Origin: Bdellovibrio sp.
GTDB taxonomy: Bacteria > Bdellovibrionota > Bdellovibrionia > Bdellovibrionales > Bdellovibrionaceae
Reading direction: 5' to 3'
Assembly (NCBI GenBank): GCA_036676395.1
Contig: JAKFCY010000003.1
Span: 538,330 to 602,329, forward strand
DNA length: 64,000 bases
Position 1 is the stretch's first letter, and each line of letters starts with the position of its first letter. Both the position numbers and the translations under genes were made by a program. Below are positions 21,210 to 37,730 of the stretch, piece by piece. The notes under the pieces were generated by a model, which had not been told where the DNA came from, made no database searches, and saw nothing but the letters and a program-made list of their open reading frames with translations.

Positions 21210-21562
21210 GGGGGTGTACTGGCTTCGACGTGGGTCGTGAAGCAAAGGGAGCATACCGGGGCGCATGTGGACCTCGATAAAAACGTGCATATTACAATTG
21301 CTAACAACAATTATCAATTAGCAGCTTAGTTCTGTTAACGGATTTGGCGTAGGTCGACGGTGTCGATGCCTGATCCGACGATAATGCCGTCTCGGACTTC
21401 ACTGGTTTCTCTGGAGTGAAGTCTTAATAGTTATCCAGGGGATTGGTGTTCAGAATTTTGTTTGTGGAAGTCTGAGCACCTTAATTAAAACATAAACTAA
21501 GTATGTAGCGCCTTTTCGTGGATCTCTTGCGGACCCGGGTTCAATTCCCGGCACCTCCACCA
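21210..21562 (+). ncRNA. ssrA: tmRNA
   Basis: 5' GGGGGTG pairs with 3' CACCTCC-A-CCA (G3:U alanine determinant); T-arm CCGGG-TTCAATT-CCCGG; tag ORF GCT AAC AAC AAT TAT CAA TTA GCA GCT TAG (ANNNYQLAA) at 21300-21329. Confidence 0.98.
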
Positions 21563-21580
21563 ATTTTTTAGTTAGAACCC
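21552..21580 (+). repeat. attL-like copy of a 29-bp direct repeat (tmRNA 3' end)
   Basis: CACCTCCACCAATTTTTTAGTTAGAACCC, identical at 27616-27644. Confidence 0.92.
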
Positions 21581-21616
21581 GAACGTCCACGTAGGATTTT
21601 CGGGTTTTTCTTTTTT
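21574..21616 (+). terminator. ssrA terminator
   Basis: AACCCGAA...TTCGGGTT stem plus T-tract. Confidence 0.75.
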
Positions 21617-21631
21617 AAAATACTATTTTGA

Positions 21632-21691
21632 TAAGTTATATTAACTGTATATGGAGGTTATTAGAAATCGAACCCTCAGAGCACTCATTTT
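21632..21691 (+). pseudogene. 5' remnant of a ybaN-like gene (upstream region + MEVIRNRTLRALI)
   Basis: 54/60 nt identical to 47040-47099, the start of intact ybaN. Confidence 0.85.
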
Positions 21692-22661
21692 ATTCTTTAG
21701 CGTTATCGTTATCACCTGGTAGATTTTCTGGATTTTGCGGAGCTGTTAATAGCAATACTTCTTTGGTTGATTCGAGAAGTTTCTTTGATTGATCTTCTAC
21801 TTGAGCACTACAAGCTACTTCAATTTTTTTCGTAATAAGTGGAATTTCGAGGTCAGAGCCACGTTCAAATAAATCACTTAAAGCCTCAAGTGATTTATTA
21901 TATCTAATCAAAGCTTCATTCCCGTCTGGTGTGCCCAGAATTCCATACTCCTGGGCTAATGATACTGAGAGTCTTTGTTTCAAATAGGAATTTTTAAGTT
22001 TGTTGGTTTCAGTTAAAGATTTAATATACTCAGTTGTGGCTTCGGTTAACTGAGTAGTTGATTCTACGCCTTTGGTTTTTGCGATTTCAGTTTTTAATTT
22101 TTGATTCTCATTGGCAATTTCCATTGCACCTTTTACGACGTCTAGAAAAGTTTTTAAACCGTCTCCAATTATTTTAAGAATTAGCCAATCTGTTCCGGTA
22201 TCGACTCCACGAAATTCAATTTGAGGAGCCTTAGCGTTGCCGGAAAATAATTGAGAGAAGCTCTTCTCCAAAATATCTATATCTTCTTTTAAATCACTTA
22301 AATTTCGCTCTTGAGGCAATTTGAAATATACGAAGCCTTTTTCGGGTTTTTTAACCGCTTGATCTAGAATTTGATTCGCTTGATTCGCGAGTGATATTAA
22401 GATGTTTGTTCTGTTTTGAATAGTTTTATGTAATTCGCTTGAAACATTATCGAGCATTTTATCGTCTTTTACGACAGGCAGACTTGCAATTAATTGCATG
22501 GCTGCAATTTTAAGTGCGGCAATTTGTGATAAATTTTCTGCAGCTGACTTTAACGTTAGCAAACCAGAAATAGCAAAGCTATTACCTAAACTGTTTTGTG
22601 ATTTCAAGATAATTTTATCTAAGTTGTTAATGATAATTTCTTGCATCTTGGATAATCGCAT
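21690..22661 (-). CDS. Hypothetical helical / coiled-coil island protein
   Basis: Long ORF; RBS AGGTGG before ATG 22661. Confidence 0.75.
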   Translation of the reverse strand: MRLSKMQEIIINNLDKIILKSQNSLGNSFAISGLLTLKSAAENLSQIAALKIAAMQLIASLPVVKDDKMLDNVSSELHKTIQNRTNILISLANQANQILDQAVKKPEKGFVYFKLPQERNLSDLKEDIDILEKSFSQLFSGNAKAPQIEFRGVDTGTDWLILKIIGDGLKTFLDVVKGAMEIANENQKLKTEIAKTKGVESTTQLTEATTEYIKSLTETNKLKNSYLKQRLSVSLAQEYGILGTPDGNEALIRYNKSLEALSDLFERGSDLEIPLITKKIEVACSAQVEDQSKKLLESTKEVLLLTAPQNPENLPGDNDNAKE

Positions 22662-22816
22662 AAGGCCACCTTGTGTAAATAAAAACATATCGACATAAAA
22701 AAGTAAAAGTTTAGAAAATCCTTTATATCCAATTGTTCATTTCTGAGATTAAATCCGAACGATTGGAACATAATAAATTTTAGTTTAGTAATTTTGAATC
22801 CGAATAGCTTCATACA

Positions 22817-22855
22817 AAGAAAATCAGCACATTTGAAGTATGTGCTGATTTTCTT
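22817..22855. promoter_or_regulatory. Perfect 16-bp inverted repeat between divergent island genes
   Basis: AAGAAAATCAGCACAT-ttgaagt-ATGTGCTGATTTTCTT. Confidence 0.6.
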
Positions 22856-22909
22856 ATTCATGAGTGCCACTAAATATTAAAATTTTCGATTCACTCACTT
22901 GGGAGCAAT

Positions 22910-23605
22910 ATGAAAAACGCTACTAAGTCAGATCTTGCGAAGATTTTCCTGACGGCAATTCATAATGAAGAAATTGGTTTATCACGTCTAAATGTCTTAC
23001 ATGCGGCTACTCAAAGTTTGAATGGGATAGCTTCTGATCTATTACAGATTGGTACTTCTCGGCAAGATACGTTGATCTTATCTTGTGCACTTTTATCCCG
23101 TCTTGCCACTGAGTTAATTGATGGAATTTTTACGATGTTTAAACAAGGAAATGAATATTCGGCAGCATGTCTGCTTCGGCAACTGGTCGAAATTGAATAT
23201 TTATTTTTTCTTGGCTATTCAAATCCACAAAACTTAAATAAATGGTATAATGCTAGCCCTGAAGAACTCCGAAAGAAATTTACTCCCCAAAAAATGCGAA
23301 AAGAAGCTGATGGATTATTTAGCGATCAAGAATATTGGCATCATTGCGAAGTCGGTGGACACCCCCATCCCAACTCAATAGTAATGTTGCGAGAATATGC
23401 TGGAGGCGGAGTTCCAGCAGCATTCCTTCATCCTGATTCGGCTCATCATGTAAGACGATTATGGACATCTTTGCGCCTATTATTACCAAAAATAGATTGT
23501 GCTGCAGTACTCGATAAACACAAAGATCCATTGGTTGAAGCTATAAGGGATTGGGAGACTAAGGAAGATCCGACGATTTTGAAGATAGATGGCCTTAATC
23601 ATTAA
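22910..23605 (+). CDS. DUF5677-like (HEPN-like) helical protein
   Basis: SAACLLRQLVE and YWHHCEVGGHP motifs; RBS GGGAG. Confidence 0.6.
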   Translation: MKNATKSDLAKIFLTAIHNEEIGLSRLNVLHAATQSLNGIASDLLQIGTSRQDTLILSCALLSRLATELIDGIFTMFKQGNEYSAACLLRQLVEIEYLFFLGYSNPQNLNKWYNASPEELRKKFTPQKMRKEADGLFSDQEYWHHCEVGGHPHPNSIVMLREYAGGGVPAAFLHPDSAHHVRRLWTSLRLLLPKIDCAAVLDKHKDPLVEAIRDWETKEDPTILKIDGLNH

Positions 23606-23708
23606 ATATAAGTGTTTGCTCCTCGGCTACTGTTCTATTCTGGACTACCCCTTTTTTATAAATAAATTAATATTTGTTCTTGAGCTTAAAATGATTCAAG
23701 GTGGGCTT

Positions 23709-24806
23709 GTGAGCGATTACGAAGAAAAAGAAGAGAAAGTACGTCGAGATAAGATAGAACTTTCGGAAGAAGAATTTGAAAAAGGTAGGCAGGAAATTCT
23801 TTTTGCCGTCAATTCAGCTAGAAATAATAAACTACAAGATAGAGTTGCTTGGATACTTAATCATTACCCAGCAGCTAGAGATTCAGACATAACACTTAGT
23901 TTAAGTTACTGGGAGCAATTTGAACCTGAATTTTTAGATGGTGAGGTAATTAAGAAGTTAAATCTTTTTAAACTTACTAAAACTAATTCATTAACTCGAG
24001 AACGAGCGCGTATTCAAAATGTCTATAAATTGTATTTAGCAAGTGATAAAGTTCGAAAGCATCGTGGAAAATTAGAAGAAGATCAGTATGCGGCGGCGAT
24101 ATCGGAGCAGCCTAATTTTCCTGTATCAGTAGTTTATGCGGACGAAAGTGGTAAGAATGATAAGTTTTTAATTGTCGGCAGTCTTTGGATTCTTAATGGT
24201 CGCGAAGCCTTTCGCCTTCAGCAGCAAATTGAGGCCTGGAAAATTCAAAAATGTATAACTTATGAGTTTCATTTTGCGGAATTAAAAAAACAGCAATTAG
24301 AAGAATACAAAGAGCTAGTTGATCTTTTGCATGCGGAATCTGCTTTACTAGGTTTCAAAGGAATGTTTGTAGAACGTGCGGGGACAGGGCATCAGTCTGA
24401 AGTATATGGCGATCTATTTTATCACTTAATTGTAAAAGGTATCGAACATGACCATGGTAAAAATAGGGCGCCACTGCCCAGAACTATTCAATTTTTGAAA
24501 GATCAAGAGAGTACGGGTGGCGATAAGCTTCTATTGGCTAATTTAAAAGATCGATTGCAACAGGTTTCTGTAAATAAATTCGATAAAAAATTATACATAG
24601 ACCAGATTGAAGCGATGGACTCAAAGGCATTGATACATCTGCAGCTCACAGATTTATTTACTGGTTCAGTTAATCGACATTTAAATCATAATAACGATGT
24701 TAAGAATCATAAAGATGAATTTGCGGATTATTTTATAGATAAATTTCGCATCAAAAGAAAAAAGCTTTCTGGTGAAGATGTTACTGCCTTACTTAGTTTT
24801 GATTAA
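23709..24806 (+). CDS. DUF3800 domain protein with an N-terminal extension (start 23691 or 23709)
   Basis: VYADESG, EFHF and LQLTDL motifs typical of DUF3800. Confidence 0.85.
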   Translation: MSDYEEKEEKVRRDKIELSEEEFEKGRQEILFAVNSARNNKLQDRVAWILNHYPAARDSDITLSLSYWEQFEPEFLDGEVIKKLNLFKLTKTNSLTRERARIQNVYKLYLASDKVRKHRGKLEEDQYAAAISEQPNFPVSVVYADESGKNDKFLIVGSLWILNGREAFRLQQQIEAWKIQKCITYEFHFAELKKQQLEEYKELVDLLHAESALLGFKGMFVERAGTGHQSEVYGDLFYHLIVKGIEHDHGKNRAPLPRTIQFLKDQESTGGDKLLLANLKDRLQQVSVNKFDKKLYIDQIEAMDSKALIHLQLTDLFTGSVNRHLNHNNDVKNHKDEFADYFIDKFRIKRKKLSGEDVTALLSFD

Positions 24807-24942
24807 AGCTACTAGTTGATTAAGGTAACGCATTAGCAAGTGAGATAGTCTAACAAAGCAGAAGGCCGAGCGAAGTTAAGTGATTAAGTCACTTATTCGA
24901 ATCTATGTAGAAGTTTTTTATTTGTAGGGTAAGGTATATTAT

Positions 24943-25806
24943 ATGGAAGAAATAAAAAGGTCTCGAAAAGCGCTTATTCTTTTTCCTCAGTCTAAGCTAG
25001 GAAAAATAATTTTGTACCTAATCTTGGGTGCTAAAGTTTTGATGTATGTGGTCAGGGCATTTACGCTGCCGGATAAAACTCTGACGGCTGATCCTAGCCT
25101 GCTGTCTTTGATTGGTATGTTAATAGATATTATAAGTGTTGTTAGTGTTGATCTTATTATCATGTGGATTGCGCGCTGGATACTTGTAAAAACTAAAATA
25201 TTGGAAGTGCAGAATACTGATAAGACTGAGTTTAGCCGTCTCTTTGCGGCGATAGTTGGTATCATTCTTATCAGTTCAATTGCTATTCCGATTTTCGTTA
25301 GTGGCGGTTTTCCGTTAAAGAAGACGTCATCTCCTACTTCTAATGTCGATAATCTTTCTTCTGAAGAAAAGGCAAGATTTCGGGAGATTATGACTGCTGT
25401 AATACAATCTAATGAGAATTTGACAGCAGAAATTCATTCTGAGTTTTGGATATTGTTGCGAAAAATGGGAGTTCGCGAAGAAGGACAAATCGCACAGCTT
25501 AAGGACGTAATGACAGGCGCTTCTGGAAAATATCAAAGATATGTTTGGGAAGATGCGCAGAAATCATTGCGAGAAGGTCGCGTATTCAAATCACCAGAAC
25601 GAGAAGCATATGAAAAATATCTTCAGTCAATTGGTATGACCGAAGATCGTCGCATTCAGAACGATGAGTTCATAAAGAAAATAGCAAATAAGATTGCGAT
25701 CCCAATTCAAGGAGAAAATGTGGTTATGAACGAAGAAATGATTAAGGAAATACTTTCTAATCTTGCTAGTGCGACTGCGAGAATAGACAAACTTTTTACC
25801 CCTTAA
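24943..25806 (+). CDS. Hypothetical membrane protein (3 TM + helical domain)
   Basis: Three hydrophobic segments in the N-terminal third. Confidence 0.7.
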   Translation: MEEIKRSRKALILFPQSKLGKIILYLILGAKVLMYVVRAFTLPDKTLTADPSLLSLIGMLIDIISVVSVDLIIMWIARWILVKTKILEVQNTDKTEFSRLFAAIVGIILISSIAIPIFVSGGFPLKKTSSPTSNVDNLSSEEKARFREIMTAVIQSNENLTAEIHSEFWILLRKMGVREEGQIAQLKDVMTGASGKYQRYVWEDAQKSLREGRVFKSPEREAYEKYLQSIGMTEDRRIQNDEFIKKIANKIAIPIQGENVVMNEEMIKEILSNLASATARIDKLFTP

Positions 25807-25962
25807 GTGATTTGTAGAAATAGAAATTCATGAGCAGTATTTTTCATCAGGTAAAGAGTTTTATAGATCAGACATTGTTGAGAGATTTAAAAATTATTTT
25901 TTGGTTATGTAAGCCATACATATATTTTGGCGATTACAAAGATTAAGAGAGGGATAAGGTTT

Positions 25963-26091
25963 ATGAAAGGTATTGTTGCGAATATCAATCAATGTCGTGG
26001 AATGGTTGCAGTAAAAACTAACAAGTATATGATTTTTGTGATTCAAGATTCATCAGTAATGAAAGCTCCGATATTGAGAGATGAAATTTAA
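25963..26091 (+). pseudogene. Small ORF or gene fragment (42 aa, MKGIVANINQCRGMVAVKT...)
   Basis: RBS-like GGGATAAGG; its stop codon abuts the ATG at 26092. Confidence 0.45.
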
Positions 26092-26652
26092 ATGGATTTG
26101 ACTTCAATAGTTAACATCATTTCTGCGATTGTAATTGGCATTCTTACTTTCTTGATATGGAGAGCAACACAAGCTCAGGCAGAGACTACAGATGCGTTGC
26201 GTGCAATAGAAACTCAGCGTGACTTCGCAGAAGATCCAAGAGTATTTATTTGCATCGATGGTTATCATCCAGACACCCAGGTAGCTAGTTTTGTCATGCA
26301 AAACTCAGGCAAGAAGAGTCTGTTTCTTCGGTCCTTGCAAATTTACTCTTCTGGAATGGAAGTAGAAATGTTTAACATGGAAATGGGATCTAAAAATGAT
26401 CGAATGATGGTCCCAAGACAAGAAATTCGTGATTTAGTTATTACACCAGATAAAACCGAAAAATTTTATTTCAAACTTAACGGCAGTGGCCAGCACTTCG
26501 AGTTATTGGCTCAACTTTATACCGGCAATCCGGTTCGCCTTAAAATGAACCCATCCTACTATAACGGATATGAATTGCGCGCTATAGGCGGAACTGAACT
26601 TAAAGCCTACTTTAAGGGTAGGGAGTTAAATAAAAACGGTGATGCTAGTTAA
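26092..26652 (+). CDS. Membrane-anchored hypothetical protein
   Basis: N-terminal TM helix followed by a beta-rich domain. Confidence 0.7.
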   Translation: MDLTSIVNIISAIVIGILTFLIWRATQAQAETTDALRAIETQRDFAEDPRVFICIDGYHPDTQVASFVMQNSGKKSLFLRSLQIYSSGMEVEMFNMEMGSKNDRMMVPRQEIRDLVITPDKTEKFYFKLNGSGQHFELLAQLYTGNPVRLKMNPSYYNGYELRAIGGTELKAYFKGRELNKNGDAS

Positions 26653-26685
26653 TTAGATTAGTCAGAAAAATAAATAGGAGCGATT

Positions 26686-26889
26686 ATGGATTCTAAAAAA
26701 GAAAATACTCAACGAATTACTGTGGGAGAGTTGATTGACCACTTAAAAGTTTTTGATAAAGATTCGGAAGTGATTTTTGGTAATGAGGAAATAAGTTTTT
26801 ATCGAACGAAGTATAGGGGAGAAAAACTTGTTCAGATTGAGTTTAATGAAATAATACTTGATGGAAAGATTACTAGACTCACGGAATAG
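26686..26889 (+). CDS. Small hypothetical protein
   Basis: RBS AGGAG; ITVGELIDHLKVFD N-terminus. Confidence 0.65.
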   Translation: MDSKKENTQRITVGELIDHLKVFDKDSEVIFGNEEISFYRTKYRGEKLVQIEFNEIILDGKITRLTE

Positions 26890-26963
26890 AAGACTCATTA
26901 TAAAAGTACGTATGATGCAGGGTGGTTTGAAGTTACCCATTCTAACCTAAAAGGAGAGTTGGC

Positions 26964-27520
26964 GTGGATCAAAAAAAGTTAAAAATTGCGTACCATGAAA
27001 CAGGTCATGCGGTTATGGCATTGATTTGTGGCCAAGATATACAGAAGGTTTCGCTTAGAGAAATGGACTCGCCTTTAGGAACAGATAAGTATCTTGCGTC
27101 TGCGTCACTTGAACCCTTCAGGCAAGAGCCGACTATTACGATTAACGAATCTAATCGGAGAATCATGATCTGGTTGGCAGGCTTTACAGGAGATGGATTA
27201 TTTTCTGAGGGCGTAATCAGTAATTTCGGCGGTGACGACTTAATGAGGGCAACACGTTGGATTGAAAATATGTTAGAAAACGAAATGTTTAGAAGTTTCG
27301 CAGAGCAGTTACCAGACCCCGCACCAGGTACATTAGATTTGATTGAGAACCTTCTGGTTAGACGATACATCGACTATATGATGCAAAAGTGCTTTGAGAC
27401 ACTGGGGCCGCTAAAACCGACAATTAAGGAATAGCTGAAGAATTGTATCGACGTGAGGAACTCACAGGAGATGAGATCTCTGCCCTTTTCAATTCTTTTA
27501 TGCAGTCGCGCCTATATTAA
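26964..27520 (+). pseudogene. Peptidase M41 (FtsH protease domain)-like gene, frameshifted at ~27430
   Basis: IAYHETGHA zinc motif and GGDD. The frame stops at 27434, but IAEELYRREELTGDEI continues in another frame (27431-27520). Confidence 0.8.
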
Positions 27521-27584
27521 GTTTAAGCTATTTCAAAAGCCTTGAAATTAGGCTAGAATAGCCAGGTACACAAAAGAAGTGGGC

Positions 27585-27680
27585 TGCGGACATCATGGTT
27601 CGGCAATCGAGTCTCCACCTCCACCAATTTTTTAGTTAGAACCCAGATGTCCGCAAAGGATTTCTGCGTTCTCTTTTTTC
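27585..27680 (+). repeat. attR-like copy of the tmRNA 3' end with a degenerate terminator
   Basis: TGCGGACA..., exact 29-mer at 27616-27644, then AGATGTCCGCAAAGGATTTCTGCGTTCT resembling the ssrA terminator. Confidence 0.9.
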
Positions 27681-27719
27681 AGACGTCAACGTCGCACGAT
27701 GAACTAATCTCTATTTTTT

Positions 27720-28226
27720 TCAGACATATCGATGCATTCTTTTCTCCTGCAATTCAGTCTTGAGGTCGCAACTTGTCAGTCGAAGCATTAAGATTGAACT
27801 CGAAATGCATTTTGTGTCGTGGATATCGCCGGGCAAGTAAACCCGACTTTCACCCGCCGTCATTCGGTACTTTTCACGTCGAACTATTTCGATGTTACCT
27901 TGCCGCTCAGTGCGCCCATAGGTTCCCATTTCAATTTCGCCTCGTTGAACAGCGTAGATGACCCATCCGTTTCCATGATCATGAGGGTGTCGATACAACC
28001 CCTCGTTTTCTGTGTGCGCTAAAAGAATGAATCCATGTTCGGGATCTCGATACAGTTCGCGGCTTTCATCAAGATCTTCTTTTAGAGCTGCTAGCCACGG
28101 TTCAGAAATGGGTGCATGTACAAGATCTTCGAGCAAAGCCTGGGTTTTTATAACCAGTTTTGAATCTAATGGTCCCCATATTTTTCGAATCTCTTCGATG
28201 AATTTAGTTAGCGAATCTTTTTTCAT
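27720..28226 (-). CDS. Cupin / cysteine-dioxygenase-like protein
   Basis: LYRDPEHGF, PHDHG.GWVIY and GDIH metal ligands. Confidence 0.8.
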   Translation of the reverse strand: MKKDSLTKFIEEIRKIWGPLDSKLVIKTQALLEDLVHAPISEPWLAALKEDLDESRELYRDPEHGFILLAHTENEGLYRHPHDHGNGWVIYAVQRGEIEMGTYGRTERQGNIEIVRREKYRMTAGESRVYLPGDIHDTKCISSSILMLRLTSCDLKTELQEKRMHRYV

Positions 28227-29425
28227 AAGTTCTCCTTTTTTGAGTGTTTGAGTTGATTGATTAGCAGAATGACGATCAAGAAGGCCGCCATCGAGAAAGT
28301 GATTTGTAATCCAACTGAAATGTTTTTCTCAGCCGCATCGGAGACGCTTCCCATTAAGTAAGTGCCAGCGATCAAGCCCAAGTTGCGCGAAAGATTTAGT
28401 GCGCCTGCTGCGATCCCGCGATGTTCGGTGCGAGCGTTTTGCATGAAGCTGTTTGAATTAGCGGATAAAAAAAGTTGGTAACCAAAACTTAGAAGAACTG
28501 CAGAGATTACAAATCCTAAAGATCCAAACTGCTTCGGTAAAAAAATAAATGAGATGCTTCCAACTAATACCTGCATAAATCCAAATTTAATAATGAGGCT
28601 GTAACCGAACCGATCGACGGCGTAACCAGCAACTATTCCAGAAAGAATTGATGTGATGGGACCCGCCGACATAACAAGACCCATGTGGCCAGGATCAAGG
28701 TGCAAAGCATGAGTCAGATAAAAGGGGCCTATGATCAAAGTTGAAACCATAACGGCCGATACCGCAAAATTTGAAAACAGATGCATTCTAAACGAAGAGT
28801 CAGAGCAGAATGATTTGGCCGTATCGAAAAAGTTACTCTGTTGTTTGTTATGGCTTGAACTTTCACTAAGCCGAACGAACTTGAAAATTAATAAAAGAGT
28901 AAAAATTCCAAGCGCCACCATCGCAGAAAATATCGTGCGCCAGCCAAACTCTGCGATAAGCAATCCGCTGATCAATGGACCTGTCGCGGTTCCTACGGCC
29001 GACATCGTAGCAAGAAATCCGATGGCCCGACCCATTTTCTGATCAGGCAAAGTATCTGTTATGATGGCGATGGGAAGTACGGCAAGTGCTGCGGCGCCAA
29101 TTCCTTGTATCACTCGACCGAAGATCAAGGCTGAGAATGAAAATGAAAAACTGGAAATAAACGTTCCGGCGCTAAACATGGCCGCTCCTAATAGAAGAAT
29201 ATTTCGTCGTCCGTTTAGGTCTGCGAGCCTACCTGCGACAAGACTAAATAATGTGATTGCCAATAGATACGAGAGAACGATCCATCGTACGGCCGAAAAA
29301 GAAAGTGAGAATTCCTCGGCGATAGACGGTAATGCAAGATTAGCCATGCTTGTGCCGGCCGAGACAAGAAGAGCCGATAAGGCCAGAGTTCCTACCAATA
29401 AGTTTTGTTTGCATCGTAATCTCAT
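28223..29425 (-). CDS. MFS efflux transporter
   Basis: GRLADLNGRR motif A; GRVIQGIGAA; multiple TM helices. Confidence 0.93.
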   Translation of the reverse strand: MRLRCKQNLLVGTLALSALLVSAGTSMANLALPSIAEEFSLSFSAVRWIVLSYLLAITLFSLVAGRLADLNGRRNILLLGAAMFSAGTFISSFSFSFSALIFGRVIQGIGAAALAVLPIAIITDTLPDQKMGRAIGFLATMSAVGTATGPLISGLLIAEFGWRTIFSAMVALGIFTLLLIFKFVRLSESSSHNKQQSNFFDTAKSFCSDSSFRMHLFSNFAVSAVMVSTLIIGPFYLTHALHLDPGHMGLVMSAGPITSILSGIVAGYAVDRFGYSLIIKFGFMQVLVGSISFIFLPKQFGSLGFVISAVLLSFGYQLFLSANSNSFMQNARTEHRGIAAGALNLSRNLGLIAGTYLMGSVSDAAEKNISVGLQITFSMAAFLIVILLINQLKHSKKENL

Positions 29426-29431
29426 GATCCC

Positions 29432-29462
29432 AGTGTGCAACCTCAAGTGAACTTGAGTTCAA
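29432..29462 (-). promoter_or_regulatory. MerR-type promoter with a 19-bp spacer and a SoxR-box-like operator
   Basis: Minus strand TTGAAC-N19-CACACT; palindrome CTCAAGTGAACTTGAG within the spacer. Confidence 0.8.
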
Positions 29463-29522
29463 GTCTATTCTGGCAAAAATAGACTTTTTATTGGCTTTTA
29501 TAGGTGTTTGCCTTAACCTGAG

Positions 29523-29542
29523 ACCTCAAGTTCAATTGAGGT
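29523..29542. promoter_or_regulatory. Second MerR operator (autoregulatory)
   Basis: ACCTCAAGTTCAATTGAGGT immediately upstream of the merR ATG. Confidence 0.75.
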
Positions 29543-29547
29543 TAGAC

Positions 29548-29973
29548 ATGAAATCGAATTCTATAAATAAAACGCTCGATATTGGTGACGTAGTTCAGTT
29601 GTCAGGGGTGCCCCCTTCGACACTTCGCTTTTATGAAGAGAAGGGTTTAATCCGATCAACGGGCCGTCATGGGCTAAGAAGGCTTTTCAATGCTCATGTC
29701 TTACAGCAGCTAGAATTTATTGCGCTGGGAAGACACGCTGGTCTAACTTTAGAAGATATTGCTTCGATGTTTACGACCGAAGGCGAACTTCAGGTCAGCA
29801 GAGAGTTTCTTTTCGAGAAGGCCAATGAAATGGAAAAGAGCATTCGCAAGCTTACTGCAGTTCGTAGCACTCTTTTGCATGTAGCCAAGTGTTCTGCGCC
29901 AAACCATATGGAATGTCCTAAATTTCAACGCTTACTGCGAGTCGCCGGTAAAAAGAAACATTCCCGCAGGTAG
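29548..29973 (+). CDS. MerR-family transcriptional regulator
   Basis: LDIGDV...STLRFYEEKGLI HTH; C-terminal CSAPNHMECPKF. Confidence 0.93.
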   Translation: MKSNSINKTLDIGDVVQLSGVPPSTLRFYEEKGLIRSTGRHGLRRLFNAHVLQQLEFIALGRHAGLTLEDIASMFTTEGELQVSREFLFEKANEMEKSIRKLTAVRSTLLHVAKCSAPNHMECPKFQRLLRVAGKKKHSRR

Positions 29974-29984
29974 GTTGAGAAAGC

Positions 29985-30422
29985 TTAAAACATTGTATTA
30001 TCGTTAGCGGCTTTTTCTGGAACCTCTTGAACGACATCCCAATGTTCGACTAGTTTTCCATTTTTGAGCCGGAAGATGTCCATGATAGCAAGTCCACGAG
30101 TTTTGTCATTTACCTTCCCATGAGCGTGCACGACGACCAAATCACCTTTTGCGATAATTCTTTTAATCACAATTTTAGAGTCGGGATTTTTTTTGAACAG
30201 AGGTTCAAAAAATGCCACGAAGGCATCTGCTCCATTGGCAACAGAGGGATTATGCTGAATATAACTTTCTCCAAAATACTTCTGAGTTGCTTCGCGTGGC
30301 TTATGCTTGTTGAAGGCAAGTTCAAAGAAAGCGATAACGACTTTCTTGTTGGTTTCTTCAAGCTCACTGGCAAAGGAAATTTGAGAGAATGCAACCACGG
30401 CGATCGCTAAAATCATTTTCAT
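29985..30422 (-). CDS. Secreted SnoaL-like / NTF2 protein
   Basis: YIQHNP, GDLVVVH, DIFRL..GKLVEHWDV; signal peptide. Confidence 0.9.
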   Translation of the reverse strand: MKMILAIAVVAFSQISFASELEETNKKVVIAFFELAFNKHKPREATQKYFGESYIQHNPSVANGADAFVAFFEPLFKKNPDSKIVIKRIIAKGDLVVVHAHGKVNDKTRGLAIMDIFRLKNGKLVEHWDVVQEVPEKAANDNTMF

Positions 30423-30486
30423 TTTTATCTCCAACCTGGGAAATGTCCCAAAAAATTAATCCGAATAAGAATAAAAAAATATAAGA

Positions 30487-31257
30487 TCATTTTGCTTCAG
30501 CCTTTAGCGCTTTTGCAACAGCTTCTCCAAAAGGCTTTGCCGATGGAGGATTCTGACCAGTAATCAGACGTCCATCGATTACGACTTTACTTTTTAAGAT
30601 AGGTGCTTTTTCGAAAATAGCTCCAGCTTTTCTAAGAGCAGTTTCAAGATCAAATGGAATTAGTTTTTCATATTTGAGAGAGATTTCTTCTTCTTTAGTG
30701 AATGCTGTCAGTTTTTTGCCAGCAATAAGACTTTCACCATTGCTAAGTTTTACCTTAAGAAATCCAGCGGGACCATGGCATACGGCACTCACAATTCCAT
30801 TGTTTTCGTAAATGACACGTATGATGTTTTGCAGATCAACGTTGTCGACGAAATCAAACATGGGCCCATGTCCACCAACCAGTTGAATAGCATCATATTT
30901 TGTAGGGTCGATATCCGAAAGTTTTAGAGTGTTACCGAGTTTGTTTCGATATTTTGGATTAGTCCAAAACCATAAATTCGCTTCATCTTTTAAATCAAAA
31001 CCATCGAAGGGTGAAAGTCCTCCTTTAGGACTGACTATGTCGATATCAAAGCCAGCTTTATCATAAACCTGAACAGGATGAGTTAGTTCAGGAAACCAGA
31101 ATCCCGCTACTAGGCCTTCGCCTTTCTTGTCTTGGCTTGATACCACTATGAGAATTTTCCTATTCTTATTTTCAGTACTTTTAGCCATTGAGATAGTTGA
31201 GAAAGATAAGAACATTGAGATGATGGCTGTTGTTATTGCAATTGAGTGCTTATTCAT
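30487..31257 (-). CDS. DJ-1/PfpI (type 1 glutamine amidotransferase-like) protein
   Basis: GFWFPELTHP, GGHGPMFD, SAVCHGPA, ITGQNP; signal peptide. Confidence 0.93.
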   Translation of the reverse strand: MNKHSIAITTAIISMFLSFSTISMAKSTENKNRKILIVVSSQDKKGEGLVAGFWFPELTHPVQVYDKAGFDIDIVSPKGGLSPFDGFDLKDEANLWFWTNPKYRNKLGNTLKLSDIDPTKYDAIQLVGGHGPMFDFVDNVDLQNIIRVIYENNGIVSAVCHGPAGFLKVKLSNGESLIAGKKLTAFTKEEEISLKYEKLIPFDLETALRKAGAIFEKAPILKSKVVIDGRLITGQNPPSAKPFGEAVAKALKAEAK

Positions 31258-31384
31258 TTTTTCTCCTAGTGATAAATTACAGTGCTCATTATATATTGAA
31301 AAGTATTGCTTAAGAATCCCATCTTATCTAAACTGGCTGTTTAGATAAATTAAACAATGCCCTTTTTTTAAAAATGGACTAAGT

Positions 31385-32291
31385 ATGTCAAATAATGATC
31401 CTTTTAGTTATTTAAGTGTTTTTTTTTGAGGTCGCTAAACAACAAAGTTTTCGTGCAGCTGCGCGTTCTTTAGAATTAACACCGGGAGCGATTAGCCAAG
31501 CAATCTCAAGCTTAGAAAAGCGATTAGGTCGCTCACTATTTCATCGAACAACCAGAAAAGTTGCATTAACAGAAGATGGGCAAGCATTCTTAAACGAAAC
31601 GCTGTCTGCTGCAGAAAAAATTGGATCTGCAGTTAAGACATTTAAGGAAAATGGAGGCACAGTCACCGGGACGCTACGGCTAATTGTGGAGCCAGTTGCA
31701 GCCACGCATGTTATAGAGACCATTCTTCCTGTTTTACGATCTCAATGGCCGGACATCTCTGTTGAGGTGGCGGTGGAAGATGTTCATACGAATTTTATTT
31801 CATCTGGATTTGACGCCGGTATAAGAATTGGATCTTATATCGCCCCCGACATGATCGCGATAAAAGTTTCTAAAAAATTCAAATGGATTATTTTAGGAGC
31901 ACCTTCTTATTTTAAAAAATATGGAAAACCTGTAACTCCGAATGATCTATTAAAACACCAGTGCCTTGGGTTAAGACGTCTCGAAAAAAGCGACGTTTAC
32001 CATTGGGAGCTTGTCGATGGAAATAAAACAATTCGAATTAATCCAGGCAGAAGAGTTGTGGTCAACAATGGCAGGCTAATGCGTCGTCTTGCCGCAAGAG
32101 GAATGGGTTTGATTTACACTTCAATGTTACATGCTTCGGAAGAATTGGAATCAGGAGAACTTGTGCCAGTTCTACAGTCTTATATGCCGACCAATGCTGA
32201 GTCGCTTTATTTATACTTTACAAAAACAAATAGAAACCAACCGAAGCTAAGAGCCCTTATAGAATGTTGTAAATCGCTGCACTCAATATAA
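31385..32291 (+). pseudogene. LysR-family regulator with a +1 frameshift in a T9 tract (31419-31427)
   Basis: ATG 31385 reads MSNNDPFSYLSVFF then TGA; removing one T joins it to EVAKQQSFRAAARSL...LFHRTTR. Confidence 0.8.
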
Positions 32292-32302
32292 ACTTTTGCC
32301 CA

Positions 32303-32341
32303 GGACATAGCTCGACTGACTCGTTCTCAAGCGCTCCACCT
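32303..32341 (+). repeat. Degenerate attR-like site
   Basis: GGACA-N26-CTCCACC, same spacing as the copies at 27588 and 36435. Confidence 0.5.
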
Positions 32342-32459
32342 CTTAAGATGAAGGTGAGTTTGTGTTTACCCTTTGAGTCTTCTGGCCCTACTCAAACTCG
32401 TCAGCCCAGAAATCGCTGCTTGAACCTGCTGTAAAATTTGAGGTCGATGTCGGTGCCAC

Positions 32460-32475
32460 TGGCATGCTCCCTGCT
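32460..32475 (+). promoter_or_regulatory. Putative sigma54 promoter
   Basis: TGGCATGCTCCCTGCT (GG-N10-GC). Confidence 0.45.
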
Positions 32476-32590
32476 AGTATGGAGTACTTATGATTTTTAT
32501 CTTGCTGTTCATGAAGTTGAGAGATCGCGATGAGACAAAGTGGCTCAATCAACAGACTCAGCCGGTCATTTTGTCAGAAGGTTATTTGTT

Positions 32591-35308
32591 ATGAACAAGC
32601 CGAGGGCGTGGCACTCACTTGATTCTGATGAATGTATTAGATGGCTAAGTACTGACGCGATACATGGCCTCTCTCAAAGGGTTGCAGCCGAGCGTCTGCA
32701 ACAATTCGGATCGAATGAATTACCAGAACCAAAGCGCCGTTCTCTTCTATCTATTGCTCTTCATCAATTTCTAAGTCCTCTTATCTATCTTTTGCTAGTT
32801 GCGGCCGGCATCGCATTTTTTATCGGTGAAGCCCGCGATGCCATTGTCATCCTGGTCGTGGTTTTTTTTAATGCTATCATAGGTGCATTTCAAGAAGGGC
32901 GCGCGGAACAGTCGCTCGCCGCACTCCGGAAACTATCAAAGTTAAAAGCTCGTGTGATACGTGGCGGACAAGAGCAACTCATCGAAGCGGGCGATGTCGT
33001 CCCCGGTGATATCCTGCTTCTTAGCTCGGGAGAAGCAGTTGCCGCTGATGCGAGACTCGTTGAGGCCTCATCAATTGCAGTCGCTGAGGCTGCTCTTAGC
33101 GGCGAGTCCTTACCCGTGCGCAAGTTCGTTGAGCCACTTGTGGAAAATACGGTTCTCGCTGATCGACATAATATGATTTATGCTGGCACTCACATTACAG
33201 CGGGACGAGGACTTGCCGTTGTGATCTCAACAGGTGTGAACAATGAGATTGGTAAAATCGCAAACCTCGCGACCACGACTTTGCAGCCAAAGACCCAGCT
33301 GGAATTGCGAATCAGACAATTTGGAAAATACCTTGTCTTTGCGGCACTTGTTGTTTTTGGGCTTGTCGTTGCAATTGGCCTCTGGCGCAATATCGCCTTC
33401 TCGCAGATTTTTATGATCGCCATCAGTCAAATGGTGTCACTCGTACCAGAAGGCTTGCCGGTGGCAATGACCATTGCGCTCGCGGTTGGCGTTCAGCGTA
33501 TGGCTCGCCGAGGAACAATTGTCCGAAGACTCGCTGCAGTTGAAACCCTGGGTTCAACGACTGTTATATGTAGCGATAAAACCGGAACACTCACTCGCAA
33601 TGAAATGGCAGTGACCGCCATTTATTTACCATCCAAGAAACGAGAAATTACCGTCGCAGGAGTCGGGTATGCCCCAGAGGGATATTTCGAGGAAAGTGGG
33701 CATAAACTTACGACTCAACTTGATGAAACATTACAGAAGCTTTTTGTCGCGAGTGTTTTGTGCAATGATGCTCAGCTGCTTGGCCCTGACGCCTTAGCTA
33801 ATCAATGGCGGATTGTTGGCGACCCGACAGAGGGAGCGCTTCTTACGATGGCTGCAAAAGGTGGAGCTGACATAACCTCCCTTAAAAGACAATATCAAAG
33901 AAAAGCAGAGCTGCCGTTCGACTCAGATACTAAAATGATGGCAACCCAGCACACGATAAATACCAATAGCATAGTATTTATTAAAGGAGCTCCAGAGACG
34001 TTACTAAGATACTGTGGCTCAGTATTTCACGATGGATGCATCGAGAAATTTGATGAGACGATTCTTGCCGAAGTTCAAAAAGCTTCCGAAAAAATGGCGA
34101 ATTCGGCTCTTCGATTATTAGCGATCGGGCTTGTTGAAAATGCTTTCATTGATGGTTCGAAAGGTTTTGAGCCCTTTATGGGAAAGATCACATTAATTGG
34201 TTTGATTGGCGAACTTGATCCACCAAGAACCGAAGTGGCGGATTCGATCAGGGAATGTAAGGTCGCTGGAGTTAAACCTGTTATGGTTACCGGTGATCAT
34301 AAAGCCACCGGGCTCGCCATAGCACGTGCGCTTGGCATCAGTCGAGATAATGATCTGGCGATTGATGGTCAAGAGCTTGATTTGTTATCGGATGCCGATC
34401 TTGCAGAAAAAATAAGTCGCATCAGTGTCTTTGCGCGCGTGCATCCTTCGCAAAAATTACGGATCGTCGAAGCCTTTCAAAAGCGAGGTGAAATAGTGGC
34501 AATGACCGGAGATGGCGTCAACGATGCCCCTGCTCTGGTGCGTGCAAATGTCGGAGTCGCTATGGGCATCACAGGAACTGAAGTCGCCAAAGAAGCCGCG
34601 AAAATAGTAATCACCGACGATAACTTTTCAACCATAGTAACTGCTATTTCGGAAGGTCGGCTTGTCTATCAGAATATTAAAAAGTTAATTCTCTTTCTAT
34701 TTGTAACCTCGATCGATGAAGTCGCAATACTTTTTTTGGCATTGATTCTTGGCTATCCGCCCCCGTTAGCGGCTGTTCAAATTCTATGGATCAATTTGGT
34801 GGCGGAAGGCACTTTAACCGTCAATCTTATCATGGAGCCAGCAGAGGGTGATGAGATGAAGCGGGCACCAATCCCAGTGACACAATTACTATTAGATCGC
34901 GCCCTTCTATCACGGATTCCGCTGCTGGTAATTACAACCGTAATTTCTACGTTCGGGTGGTTTACCTATCGGATTTCGATGGGAGTTTCCCCGGATGTCG
35001 TGCAAAGCGAAACCTTTACGATACTTGTTGTATGTCAATGGTTCAACGTACTCAACTGCCGCTCAGCTACACACTCAGCATTGACTTGGGATATTCTTAA
35101 GAATCCTTGGCTCTTGGGTGGATTAGTCATTAGCAATCTTCTTCAGGCTGCTGTCATCTATTGGCCGCCGCTAAGCCAGTTCTTTCATACGGTGCCAATC
35201 GATACAGCTCAGTTCTTTGCTATCGGAGCTGTGGCAAGTCTTGTTCTTTGGGCTGAAGAGGCACGAAAATTTATTGTAAGAAATAACATTTTTAACAGGT
35301 TCGCTTAG
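32591..35308 (+). CDS. Cation-transporting P-type ATPase (P2A, Ca2+-like)
   Basis: SGES, PEGLP, DKTGTLT, KGAPE, TGD, GDGVND. Confidence 0.97.
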   Translation: MNKPRAWHSLDSDECIRWLSTDAIHGLSQRVAAERLQQFGSNELPEPKRRSLLSIALHQFLSPLIYLLLVAAGIAFFIGEARDAIVILVVVFFNAIIGAFQEGRAEQSLAALRKLSKLKARVIRGGQEQLIEAGDVVPGDILLLSSGEAVAADARLVEASSIAVAEAALSGESLPVRKFVEPLVENTVLADRHNMIYAGTHITAGRGLAVVISTGVNNEIGKIANLATTTLQPKTQLELRIRQFGKYLVFAALVVFGLVVAIGLWRNIAFSQIFMIAISQMVSLVPEGLPVAMTIALAVGVQRMARRGTIVRRLAAVETLGSTTVICSDKTGTLTRNEMAVTAIYLPSKKREITVAGVGYAPEGYFEESGHKLTTQLDETLQKLFVASVLCNDAQLLGPDALANQWRIVGDPTEGALLTMAAKGGADITSLKRQYQRKAELPFDSDTKMMATQHTINTNSIVFIKGAPETLLRYCGSVFHDGCIEKFDETILAEVQKASEKMANSALRLLAIGLVENAFIDGSKGFEPFMGKITLIGLIGELDPPRTEVADSIRECKVAGVKPVMVTGDHKATGLAIARALGISRDNDLAIDGQELDLLSDADLAEKISRISVFARVHPSQKLRIVEAFQKRGEIVAMTGDGVNDAPALVRANVGVAMGITGTEVAKEAAKIVITDDNFSTIVTAISEGRLVYQNIKKLILFLFVTSIDEVAILFLALILGYPPPLAAVQILWINLVAEGTLTVNLIMEPAEGDEMKRAPIPVTQLLLDRALLSRIPLLVITTVISTFGWFTYRISMGVSPDVVQSETFTILVVCQWFNVLNCRSATHSALTWDILKNPWLLGGLVISNLLQAAVIYWPPLSQFFHTVPIDTAQFFAIGAVASLVLWAEEARKFIVRNNIFNRFA

Positions 35309-35340
35309 CGATCATATTAACGTTTCTGGAGGAATAATAA

Positions 35341-36009
35341 ATGACGAAAGTACCTAAAAAATCAGACTCCAATTTGAAATCTGAAGAAAAGCTTGAAGGC
35401 GTCGAAGGCACGAAGTCAGAACGACCGCCGCATTACTCATGGTCTACTCGCCATCTTCTTCTTGTGGTAGCGCTGTTGATTACTGTTGCTTTAGTGATCG
35501 TTCTCTCTACAGCCCCATTTGCCGCAATTCTAGGACCAAGCCACCATGCTTTGGCGGCAGCACTGCACGGGCTGTTCTCTTTTCTGTTTTTGGTCGTATC
35601 CACAGTGGGTCTCTATCTTGCCTTTCGACTTTTTACAGGAAGGATCCGTTCGTTTCCCGATCTTCAACTGGCTTCAACGACGATGGCGGTACTATCGCTG
35701 ATCACAATCGTCTTTGGTAATTGGATTTACATCGCCTACCGTGCCAAAGATCCGAAAGCCCCGCGAACTTATTTTCTAGAGAACATGCCCGAAGTTCACA
35801 AAGTGTTCTTCGAGTTTAAGGAATTCGCGGCCCTCTTTACGTTACCGCTTTCAGTGGCGGCAGCATTTATTCTCTGGCGATATGGCAGTGAAATCCTAGA
35901 CAAGACGTGGACGCGCAAGGCGGTTTCAATCCTGATCGCGCTAAACTTTTTTTATCTCATGATTGCTTTTGGCCTGGGGGCCGCTGTGGCTAAGCTCAAG
36001 GGCATTTAA
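35341..36009 (+). CDS. Multi-pass membrane protein, His-containing
   Basis: RBS GGAGG; about 5 TM segments; LHG, GNWIY..YRA and HKVFFEFKE motifs. Confidence 0.8.
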   Translation: MTKVPKKSDSNLKSEEKLEGVEGTKSERPPHYSWSTRHLLLVVALLITVALVIVLSTAPFAAILGPSHHALAAALHGLFSFLFLVVSTVGLYLAFRLFTGRIRSFPDLQLASTTMAVLSLITIVFGNWIYIAYRAKDPKAPRTYFLENMPEVHKVFFEFKEFAALFTLPLSVAAAFILWRYGSEILDKTWTRKAVSILIALNFFYLMIAFGLGAAVAKLKGI

Positions 36010-36028
36010 CAAAGAAAGGGGACTGCTT

Positions 36029-36406
36029 ATGTCTAATCAAGTAAAAACGACTTCATCTCAGAGGATCCCAAATGGGGCCGCGATCGCAGCCTATCTCTCG
36101 GCCATGATCGGTCTCTTGGTGCTTTCCCTTTCTGCTTTATTATCGGAAATCTCAGAGCCCATGAAGAATTGGATTCACGAAGTTGGTAAACTTTGGATTC
36201 TAGGAGCAGAAGGCATTGGTCCTTATTCCGGAAAAGAAACGCTTGGTCTTGTCGGGTGGCTTTTCAGTTGGCTCATTCTCAATAAGGTTCTGCGAAAAAA
36301 AGAACTGAGTGGCGGTTTTTGGCTAGTAATATTTCTGGTTGGAATCGGTATTGCGACTACGCTGATATGGCCACCTATCTGGGCGATTTTCGGGGCTACG
36401 CACTGA
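36029..36406 (+). CDS. Small multi-pass membrane protein
   Basis: RBS AGGGG; PNGAAIAA and GIGPYSGK motifs; 3 TM segments. Confidence 0.8.
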   Translation: MSNQVKTTSSQRIPNGAAIAAYLSAMIGLLVLSLSALLSEISEPMKNWIHEVGKLWILGAEGIGPYSGKETLGLVGWLFSWLILNKVLRKKELSGGFWLVIFLVGIGIATTLIWPPIWAIFGATH

Positions 36407-36431
36407 GTTGGCAGATCAAATATTGGGAGGA

Positions 36432-36479
36432 TGCGGACAGCAGGGTTCGACAATTGAAATTTCTCTACCACCAATTTTT
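36432..36479 (+). repeat. Degenerate attR-like copy of the tmRNA 3' end
   Basis: TGCGGACAGCAGGGTTCGACAATTGAAATTTCTCTACCACCAATTTTT; shares TGCGGACA.CA.GGTTCG.CAAT.GA and CCACCAATTTTT with the 27.6 kb copy. Confidence 0.75.
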
Positions 36480-36565
36480 GCGAACTAGTAATTGCAATTG
36501 CTTGCGCTGACTTTAGATCTGGCTCAAGCTATGCTTCGGGACCAGATCAATAAAGGAAAGTTTCT

Positions 36566-37252: not shown

Positions 37253-37267
37253 TTGAAGCCGCAGTTA

Positions 37268-37714
37268 TTACTTTGGAATAATCAATTGTAAATCTTGTAA
37301 TCGTACAGACTTTCCTTTTTTAGAAACCATCTTAGTCTGGATAGAAACATCAGACTGATCTCTAGCATCGACTAATCTTACGCATTTTTCATTGGGTTTA
37401 AAAAGGTGCCGCGTACTCCATTCTCGGATGAGTATAAGAGCTGGTAAAAGCTCTACACCATTTGGTGTAAGTGCGTATTCATGTCTACGCGCAGTCTCAG
37501 ACACTAAGCGTTTTTCAAGAATACCAAACTCTACCAGCTTAGTCAGACGCTGGGTCAGGGTATTTCTGGGGATTCCCAGATTAAGATGAAAATCATCAAA
37601 TCGCGTGACCCCCGCAAAAGCTTCTCGAAGGATCAATAATGACCACCATTCTCCGATGACATCGAGTCCACGGGCCAAAGGACAACTTTCTTTATTTAAG
37701 TTCGTACGTTGCAT
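37268..37714 (-). CDS. HxlR-family winged-helix regulator
   Basis: CPLARGLDVIGEWWSLLILRE and EYALT..G motifs. Confidence 0.93.
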   Translation of the reverse strand: MQRTNLNKESCPLARGLDVIGEWWSLLILREAFAGVTRFDDFHLNLGIPRNTLTQRLTKLVEFGILEKRLVSETARRHEYALTPNGVELLPALILIREWSTRHLFKPNEKCVRLVDARDQSDVSIQTKMVSKKGKSVRLQDLQLIIPK

Positions 37715-37730
37715 AATAACAGCATAGCAC

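Follow-up and report, generated by a model that had tools for sequence, protein, structure and literature searches.

How did several blocks of horizontally acquired genes come to be stacked behind the transfer-messenger RNA (tmRNA) gene, ssrA, of a Bdellovibrio-like soil bacterium (Bdellovibrio sp.), in a stretch of DNA without a recombinase gene? The window, the whole stretch of 64,000 nucleotides that was analysed, is G000:C3:538330-602329 of the studied genome (G000, 3.40 Mb). A sequence-only reading had described it as an integron-like array of three cassettes, punctuated by equal attachment (att) sites at 27588, 32303 and 36435. The tandem stack of acquired blocks behind ssrA is supported, but the window contains two real att-type sites, at 27585-27680 and 36432-36479. 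We consider it likely, with a probability of about two in three, that the stack consists of tandem ssrA-specific islands of a large serine recombinase (LSR) family, which lack a recombinase here and are either stranded or mobilisable only in trans. The islands have defined ends, which are conserved around unrelated cargo; a relative has an empty site; and there is no recombinase here.

According to this explanation, island A (21.6-27.6 kb) and island B (27.6-36.5 kb) would belong to one family defined by its ends. The left end, P', would restore the terminator for the tmRNA gene, and the right end, P, would be a 36-nt arm, GCGGAC-N5-GGTTC-N18, reaching up to a crossover in the acceptor-stem/CCA tip. 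The integrase of the family would be an LSR, as on the complete islands of the relatives G016 and G219. The GGTTC would be the motif of the LSR zinc-ribbon domain, and its position in the arm (attP type) would be 5 bp more distal than in the tmRNA (attB type). Since no LSR is present in the window islands or was found in the genome, the islands may be stranded remnants, or they may move only with an enzyme provided by a related LSR island. The stack was probably reshuffled later by homologous or illegitimate recombination, which took blocks in or out at 29983, 32303 and 37275 and produced the present state around island A.

The tmRNA junction and the two right ends

Both real sites have a 36-nt right end, GCGGAC-N5-GGTTC-N19-CCACCA, abutting a copy of the tmRNA 3' tip (Table 1). 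The exact 29-bp copy at 27.6 kb noticed in the sequence-only reading is confirmed, and beyond it the segments 21552-21615 and 27616-27679 are 81% alike over 64 nt. The surroundings of the two right ends (27582-27632 and 36429-36479) are 76% alike, and their common sequence, TGCGGACA.CA.GGTTCG.CAAT.GA, occurs at these two places only in the 3.40 Mb, as had been claimed. The 36.4-kb site has just CCACCAATTTTT in common with ssrA, a sequence with four occurrences genome-wide, three of them in the window region; the remainder is island DNA. The Rfam tmRNA model matches at neither 27.6 nor 36.4 kb. An nhmmer profile built from three real sites recovers the window sites with E values of 9e-24 and 3e-18, and the tmRNA end with 5e-4. 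The reported spacing of 31 nt from GGAC, compared with 24 nt in the tmRNA, is correct. The additional spacing comprises 2 nt between GGAC and GGTTC and 5 nt between GGTTC and CCACCA, and GGAC-N27-(CT/TA)CCACC has three matches on both strands of the genome, all at the three listed sites, which are indeed all intergenic. Folded with RNA parameters, the 27.6-kb site forms a long inverted repeat (z -2.55) and the 36.4-kb site none (z -0.13).

The tmRNA gene is full-length at one island end, where its 3' end is regenerated by island sequence. The crossover probably lies in the 29-bp block shared with the 27.6-kb site, around T21556 and the CCACCA, and the comparison of G016 with the relative G062 places it within CCTCCACCAATT. 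The flanks of the crossover mirror each other, with GCGGAC-N5-GGTTC-N18 in the arm and N18-GAACC-N5-GTCC(A/G)C in the hairpin of the left end; in the window, the left end next to the tmRNA gene contains GAACC-N5-GTCCAC. This hairpin (version v1) folds with -18.3 kcal/mol (z -4.4). The one at 27.6 kb (v2), which had been called a decayed terminator, still folds with -15.8 kcal/mol (z -4.2), and the stems of v1 and v2 differ by paired changes. The good folding of both versions and the paired changes fit a role as tmRNA terminator. A simple terminator scan missed the left-end hairpins, as its loop limit was too tight, and folding detected them.

The same left-end design is also found after the tmRNA gene in G016, G067 and G219, and in G018 at a displaced tmRNA 3' end. 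The tmRNA loci of 40 relatives diverge immediately 3' of CCACCA, with different sequences at this point among 28 tmRNA loci, and at least three further kinds of left end occur at the tmRNA gene in this genus. A second conserved left end, GGAACC..GGTTCTAAG .. CAGGTTCC..GGTTC, follows CCACCA at the G052 junction (L053) and in G013:C159, L067 and G312 (right of arms). A third kind, with GATATC repeats, follows the tmRNA gene in G012 and G015 and an arm in G187.

The absence of a recombinase from the window, also claimed earlier, was confirmed in three ways. Pfam searches of 37 open reading frames (ORFs; 19 + 18, covering 16-50 kb) found no recombinase; six-frame searches of the genome gave seven PF00589 matches and one PF00239 match, none of them in the window; and tblastn of nine recombinases from this genome and its relatives against the window had a best E value of 0.029, with no integrase remnant. 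The window islands contain neither an integrase nor a module combining a large with a small serine recombinase. They must therefore have depended on an enzyme acting in trans or on one that was later lost, as had been suggested. Two LSR queries found no LSR in the genome, in which the sole PF00239 match is a 183-aa frame on contig C9. This small resolvase was considered as a helper and rejected, because it is 33% identical to the small recombinase of G016 and is not an LSR. Tyrosine recombinases are encoded elsewhere in the genome, on C2 and C4.

Table 1 Coordinates of the tmRNA gene, island ends, cargo blocks and other features of the locus
Feature	Position	Strand	Evidence and remarks
tmRNA gene (ssrA), integration target	21210..21562	+	ARAGORN; Rfam RF00023, 180.5 bits; tag ANNNYQLAA
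Left-junction block, 29 bp (last 11 nt of tmRNA + 18 nt)	21552..21580	+	Identical to 27616-27644
Left end (P') of island, hairpin + T-run, version v1; putative tmRNA terminator	21574..21616	+	Fold; shared design
Cargo of island A	21617..27584	.	No recombinase; GC 35-38%; absent in G018 and X5 strain
60-bp copy (90%) of 47040-47099 (DUF454 promoter + first 14 codons)	21632..21691	+	
ORFs of island A	21690-22688(-), 22910-23605, 23589-24806, 24943-25806, 26092-26652, 26964-27434		
DUF3800 / PADLOC PDC-M04A protein, island A	23589-24806		Pfam, PADLOC
Stand-alone M41-type peptidase domain, island A	26964-27434		Family scans
Right end (P arm) of island A	27585..27620	+	TGCGGAC-N5-GGTTCG..CAAT.GA-N-T; homologue in G016:C3 joined directly to native flank
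Displaced copy of tmRNA tip + downstream sequence	27616..27644	+	29 bp exact
Left end (P') of island B, hairpin, version v2	27638..27680	+	Folds; GAACCCAGATGTCCGCA also at G219 tmRNA junction
Conserved part of island B: 168-aa no-family protein (-), MFS transporter (-), MerR-family regulator (+)	27720..29973		
SnoaL-like (-), DJ-1/PfpI (-) and LysR (+) genes	29985..32291		Absent in G018, present in X5 strain; GC 38-40%
Second site of the sequence-only reading	32303..32340	+	Not att by sequence; X5 similarity stops at 32303; GC 45-47% rightward
P-type cation ATPase (922 aa) + two membrane proteins	32540..36406	+	Absent in G018 and X5 strain
Right end (P arm 36432-36467) + tmRNA-tip remnant CCACCAATTTTT (36468-36479)	36432..36479	+	Repeat, pattern, profile
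Rest of hotspot: methyltransferase, HxlR, dehydrogenases, isochorismatase, AraC, DUF6976, PAS kinase, rhodanese, SelD-like, DUF454, MarR, DoxX	36480..48550	.	Partly common to G018; absent between tmRNA and 48551 homologue in G062, G016, G067

The island family in relatives and its probable recombinase

In the complete genome G062, the tmRNA gene is followed after about 127 bp by a homologue of the window gene 48551-48997. The lack of an insert between the two indicates that the 21.6-48.5 kb segment is extra in the window and forms one hypervariable hotspot. In G016, an island starts after the tmRNA gene with a window-like hairpin. Its other end, located on another contig, contains homologues of 26092-26652 and of the M41-like gene, the 36-nt arm, CCTCCACCAATT and a flank of the G062 type. 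The contigs have a 10-nt overlap and an ORF reads across it, which gives an island of about 14.9 kb. The comparison of G016 with G062 leads to the definition of the family by P' (hairpin and T-run), P (arm) and a crossover in the acceptor-stem/CCA tip; the repeat that the two genomes have in common corresponds to the acceptor stem/CCA and not to the T-loop. In G067, a 2.7-kb unit of two HSP20 genes and a broken aminotransferase gene lies between such a hairpin and a decayed arm.

The right-end pattern was searched allowing at most one mismatch, and a reversed control pattern gave two matches. The pattern was found in 2 of the 52 genomes of the genus and in 18 of the 384 genomes of the order. 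Nine matches in eight genomes (G000, twice; G016, G219, G312, G187, G199, G088 and G144) have the extended GGTTCGAC-type arm, to which the other ten genomes look unrelated. Matches are also present on two metagenome contigs, and viral contigs had none. The arms of G187 and G199 are identical up to CCACCA, where each meets a different neighbour, and about 36 nt are kept around unrelated cargo across four families of the order. Apart from those of the assembled islands and of L067, the arms sit 1.6-4.5 kb from contig ends.

The G016 island encodes a 620-aa LSR with Resolvase, Recombinase and Zn_ribbon_recom domains (PHROG 'integrase') and a 181-aa resolvase, and has no tyrosine recombinase among its ORFs of at least 90 aa. 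In G219, from another family of the order, about 14.4 kb separate the tmRNA gene from the right end. This segment contains, in order, a v2-like hairpin, helix-turn-helix genes, a 201-aa tyrosine recombinase, a DnaB-like helicase, an LSR, a kinase and the arm. The G219 LSR is 73% identical to that of G016 and is the sole recombinase common to both complete islands. A second LSR gene of G219 abuts the junction on the reverse strand, and G219 has two tandem LSR islands. A recombinase associated with the same motif elsewhere, which the sequence-only reading had proposed to look for, is present on the islands of G016 and G219.

A homologue of the LSR in G057 (34% identical, E 3e-102; L074:12417-14183, reverse strand) has a frame that crosses the left end of the island and stops 23 nt inside the tmRNA tip, with a small resolvase 2 kb further on. 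The position of this stop inside the tmRNA gene means that integration sets the last residues of the enzyme. The window left-end hairpin has stops in two frames, and the third is open for 17 codons only; in a check for a recombinase-coding tail, the arm shows conserved peptides in more than one frame. A tRNA-type gene lies within 1.5 kb of 5 of the 18 LSR loci in the order (tmRNA once, tRNA-His twice, tRNA-Ser once, and tRNA-Lys/Glu once, 1.3 kb away), and this LSR group seems to target tRNA-type genes generally. At L081, L090 and L082 (G131, G219:C123 and G366), the genes of LSR homologues converge on tRNA-His (twice) or tRNA-Ser, ending at a distance of 60-200 bp from the tRNA 3' end.

The geometry of the ends is consistent with this type of enzyme. 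The gap between GGTTC and CCACCA is 19 nt in all five arms and 14 nt in all six tmRNA ends tabulated. Three of the five arms were retrieved with a pattern that fixed the spacing, and the agreement in L066, L067 and the hits in the order is partly a product of the search. Counted from the central T, GGTTCG occupies positions 19-24 in the arm and 14-19 in the tmRNA. According to the rule set out in Rutherford et al. (PMC3783163), the zinc-ribbon motif lies at positions 16-24 of the attP half-site and 5 bp nearer the centre in attB. The 5-bp offset between the arm and the tmRNA would therefore fit the attP/attB rule of LSRs.

Several observations weigh against LSR islands as the origin of the stack. 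The LSR genes of G016 and G219 are internal, 2.5-5.5 kb from the right end, and the G219 island also encodes the 201-aa tyrosine recombinase. At L067, no recombinase is found within 10 kb upstream of the arm; most arms lie so near contig ends that most islands could not be inspected, and the share of recombinase-less islands is not countable. The distance from CCACCA to GAACC in left ends varies between 18 and 21 nt, and motifs up to 34 bp from the centre exceed the 40-50 bp given as usual for LSR sites in 10.1101/2025.05.02.651858. The polymorphism of island A is also at odds with clean integration. Its breakpoints, 21616-21619 and 27720-27726, lie just outside the hairpins and not at the crossover, and it takes in the 27.6-kb site and 41 further bp. 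The v1 hairpin beside the tmRNA gene is 99% identical to the G018 hairpin adjoining the homologue of the 168-aa gene (27720-28226), and in the strain from metagenome run X5 a v1-type hairpin adjoins this homologue too. Clean integration or excision at the core would give the reverse arrangement, with the hairpin of island B at 27.6 kb and that of A at the tmRNA gene. Moreover, LSRs pair attP exclusively with attB, so that a second island of the same family would not be expected to enter in front of a resident one, at an attL-type site. Either the relatives lost island A through a deletion between the T-runs, or hairpin copies recombined with each other to assemble the stack.

Strain-level breakpoints and competing explanations

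In G018, whose tmRNA gene is 97% identical, a different 10.3-kb island with a 55-bp repeat lies behind the tmRNA gene. It is followed by a displaced tmRNA end and hairpin 99% identical to window 21522-21616, and then directly by homologues of 27715-29983 (91% identical); island A is absent. The similarity breaks at 29983, right after the MerR-family regulator gene, and G012 breaks at the same position. Of the DNA that follows, 29984-37159 is missing from G018, which retains 49 bp of the methyltransferase gene. At its 29983 break, the right-end motif GGTTCGACAATCGA runs directly into a hairpin of the left-end type, without the core of about 31 bp (G018:C1, about 333,150-333,200; joined region 23025-23075), and G012 has the outer part of this remnant after a remnant of the MerR-family gene.

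A strain 95-98% similar to the window is present in run X5, a soil metagenome of a separate study. One of its contigs joins 21619 to 27726 and lacks island A. Another follows the window to 32303, continues with unlike DNA and regains similarity at 37275. In this strain, unknown DNA takes the place of 32304-37274, which contains the ATPase and methyltransferase genes, those of two membrane proteins and the 36.4-kb att site. The two breaks place the 36.4-kb site inside a variable block. A search for repeats at the ends of this block yielded just a 9-nt direct repeat (32267 and 37286) off the breakpoints, and it was rejected. Runs X3 and X4 contain only thin, patchy contigs of the same strain, and parts that lack cover in any run are uninformative. 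Island A is polymorphic, and the stack has other breakpoints off the att cores. The proposal that the newest block lies next to ssrA agrees with the absence of island A from these two closest relatives, G018 and the X5 strain. The proposed 4-6 kb cassettes, each closed by a site, do not stand, as the breaks are at 29983 in G018 and at 32303 and 37275 in X5, and the variable region extends to about 48.5 kb. No module breakpoint coincides with an att core relative to G018 or X5; the X5 break at 32303 alone falls on a proposed motif.

That break is a point in favour of three equal att sites separating the cassettes of an integron-like array. The GC content also changes at 32303, and GGAC-N29-CCACC has just nine matches in the genome, three of which are here. 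However, the 32303 site agrees with 14 of the 39 positions conserved between the real sites, a score equalled or exceeded at 581,462 of the 6,802,300 genome positions (8.5%), and it was rejected as an att site. The nhmmer profile does not match it even at E<=10, and no displaced tmRNA 3' end is present there. The recurrence of the ssrA 3' end, the assignment of the joints to one att family and the specificity of the site profile in the genome scan hold for the 27.6- and 36.4-kb sites and fail for this one. The window contains no PF00589 gene that could be an integron integrase, and G018 and G012 break at 29983 instead. Since the supposed arm has its first base at the X5 break, it would be part of the right-hand block and would not close the left-hand one. 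The coincidence with 32303 is exact to the base; an array with three equal sites is very improbable. A plasticity zone remodelled by homologous or illegitimate recombination, in which the att-like sequences are passive relics, would account for the breaks relative to G018 and X5 (21616-21619, 27720-27726, 29983, 32303, 37160 and 37275), none of which is at the crossover core. It would also suit the 60-bp gene-start duplicate at 21632 and 47040, the fused remnant without a core in G018, the patchy GC content and the missing recombinase. As the sole explanation it is unlikely, because the difference between G016 and G062 is a clean insertion at the core, the identical arms of G187 and G199 meet different neighbours exactly at CCACCA, and the arm is kept around unrelated cargo in four families. 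Such remodelling accounts for recent changes in the stack but not for how the ends arose, and is complementary to the LSR islands and not exclusive of them.

According to PMC4383910, tyrosine integrases are the usual makers of islands at tRNA and tmRNA genes, and the blocks could be classical islands of this type whose integrases were deleted, the LSRs of the relatives being cargo or parts of other elements. The tyrosine recombinases on C2 and C4, the one in the G219 island, and two more 4-7 kb behind the tmRNA gene of G052 are in line with this possibility, as are direct repeats of 12-29 bp, longer than an LSR needs. However, the left end at the G052 junction is different, which points to another island family. 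The lack of a tyrosine recombinase in the G016 island, the LSR as the only recombinase shared by the complete islands, the absence of an integrase remnant from the window and the known meaning of the 5-bp offset for LSRs make this origin improbable. Tandem LSR islands remain our preferred explanation. An extension of it, which we regard as rather unlikely, is that the short hairpin-to-arm units (2.3 kb in G018, 2.7 kb in G067, 6 and 8.9 kb in the window) represent a standing pool of recombinase-free modules that LSR islands deliver at the tmRNA gene in at least four families. Such a pool would be a serine-recombinase counterpart of a gene-cassette system; its left ends would also act as terminators for the tmRNA gene, and its right ends would imitate the T-arm of the tmRNA in attP form.

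Known systems, cargo and neighbouring genes

Other bacteria are already known to stack recombinase-less islands at tmRNA genes, the nearest such system being the Dehalococcoides ssrA islands with the recombinases DsiB and DsiA. As outlined by McMurdie et al. 2011 (PMC3146451), these are tandem islands with 20-bp repeats, a non-ssrA motif upstream of each repeat, the LSR DsiB and the small DsiA; for the many islands that do not have the integration module, cis-mobilisability was proposed. They provide a better comparison than the integron suggested by the sequence-only reading. Both systems, in that description, have several tandem islands downstream of a single-copy tmRNA gene with 3'-end repeats between them, a conserved motif just upstream of each repeat that does not align with ssrA, a pair of a large and a small serine recombinase (here in G016 and G057), islands without an integration module, and a further repeat-free variable region beyond the array. 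The present islands differ by their occurrence in a Bdellovibrio-like phylum, by a crossover in the acceptor-stem/CCA tip and not in the T-loop, and by supplying the tmRNA terminator hairpin. The LSR genes of G016 and G219 are internal and point to the right end, whereas those described in Dehalococcoides, like that of G057, lie on the reverse strand by the left junction. Furthermore, the window has no integration module at all, and the LSRs of G016 and G057 are known by generic LSR domains.

Islands A and B have att-site flanks and neither integrase nor transfer genes. They resemble the cis-mobilisable elements (CIMEs) cited in PMC3146451 as att-flanked elements without integrase or transfer functions that accrete in tandem, in that their att sites belong to one recombinase family and they lie beside related elements. 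Unlike CIMEs, they are known from sequence alone and have no helper in the genome. The mobilisation of streptococcal CIMEs was reportedly shown experimentally and depends on tyrosine integrases. The SCCmec elements (staphylococcal cassette chromosomes, SCC) with CcrA/CcrB are similar in using large serine recombinases and in placing cargo islands at the 3' end of a conserved single-copy gene, and SCC form composite arrays. Their target gene is different, and the LSRs of G016 and G057 have weak NCBIfam matches to CcrB and XisF (55-60 bits), far under the family cut-offs (900).

Several island families compete for one tmRNA gene here, as among tyrosine-integrase islands, which were reportedly described at the tmRNA gene by Williams in 2003 ('Traffic at the tmRNA gene'). 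The regeneration of the target and the displaced 3' fragment at the far end are also shared with such islands as presented for Islander/TIGER (PMC4383910), but no tyrosine integrase is tied to this family of ends, and the arm mimics the tmRNA T-arm with a shift of 5+2 nt. Integrons likewise join promoter-poor units of cargo through recombination sites and have the newest unit nearest the anchor. Unlike integrons, the window has no PF00589 gene, no attC-type folded sites were seen in folds with RNA parameters, the islands are multi-gene units of 2-15 kb, and their sites are derived from tmRNA.

If the explanation by LSR islands is correct, serine-recombinase islands at tmRNA also shape the genomes of predatory Bdellovibrio-like bacteria, where their cargo includes genes of defence type and for stress or transport. 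The arm of the tmRNA and that of the island would form a natural attB/attP pair with a motif shifted by 5 bp, read from genome comparison, for a rule that was originally worked out on phage integrases. G016 and G219 provide candidate LSR/att pairs. The locus also holds a warning for annotation, as one of the three 'sites' is false and the breakpoints between strains in the hotspot mostly fall outside att cores.

The GC content of the stack is patchy, with 43% at 27-30 kb between the low values of island A and of 30-32 kb, and 45-47% at 32-36.5 kb. Most cargo proteins of island A belong to no family; those with one are the DUF3800 / PADLOC PDC-M04A and M41-type proteins. The 332-aa ORF beside the tmRNA gene has no family in Pfam, NCBIfam, PHROGs or PADLOC. 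A homologue of this helical protein, 53% identical, occupies the same place and strand after the tmRNA gene of G010 (L044:10393-11355, reverse strand), where the junction is otherwise unlike that of the window. The M41-type domain (FtsH-like, HExxH; 156-188 aa) recurs at L059:2519-3070, L067:3648-4214, by the arm in G088:C35 and in G013:C159. It is directly upstream of the right end in three of the islands that have it, and may be a regulator of the element. The conserved part of island B has DNA 91% identical in G018, directly behind the displaced tmRNA end. Of the genes in 32540..36406, only the ATPase has a homologue (77% aa identity), on another contig, of G023. The profile and the comparison with relatives reveal no att-type site in 36480..48550.

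The 60-bp copy of the DUF454 gene start begins 16 bp past the tmRNA terminator hairpin, which hints that this hairpin may once have adjoined the DUF454 gene. A small signal recognition particle RNA is encoded at 11597-11695 on the reverse strand (Rfam RF00169, 56.5 bits). On the 5' side of the tmRNA gene, the segment 19622-21196 contains a class-3 lipase gene (20105-21010). G018 has an 8-kb cbb3-oxidase/FixG/Crp cluster (Pfam) at this position, and G016 and G062 have a gap of similar size there. A ccoN/O homologue (77% identical) is present elsewhere in the genome of the window, on C2 at about 2.06 Mb.

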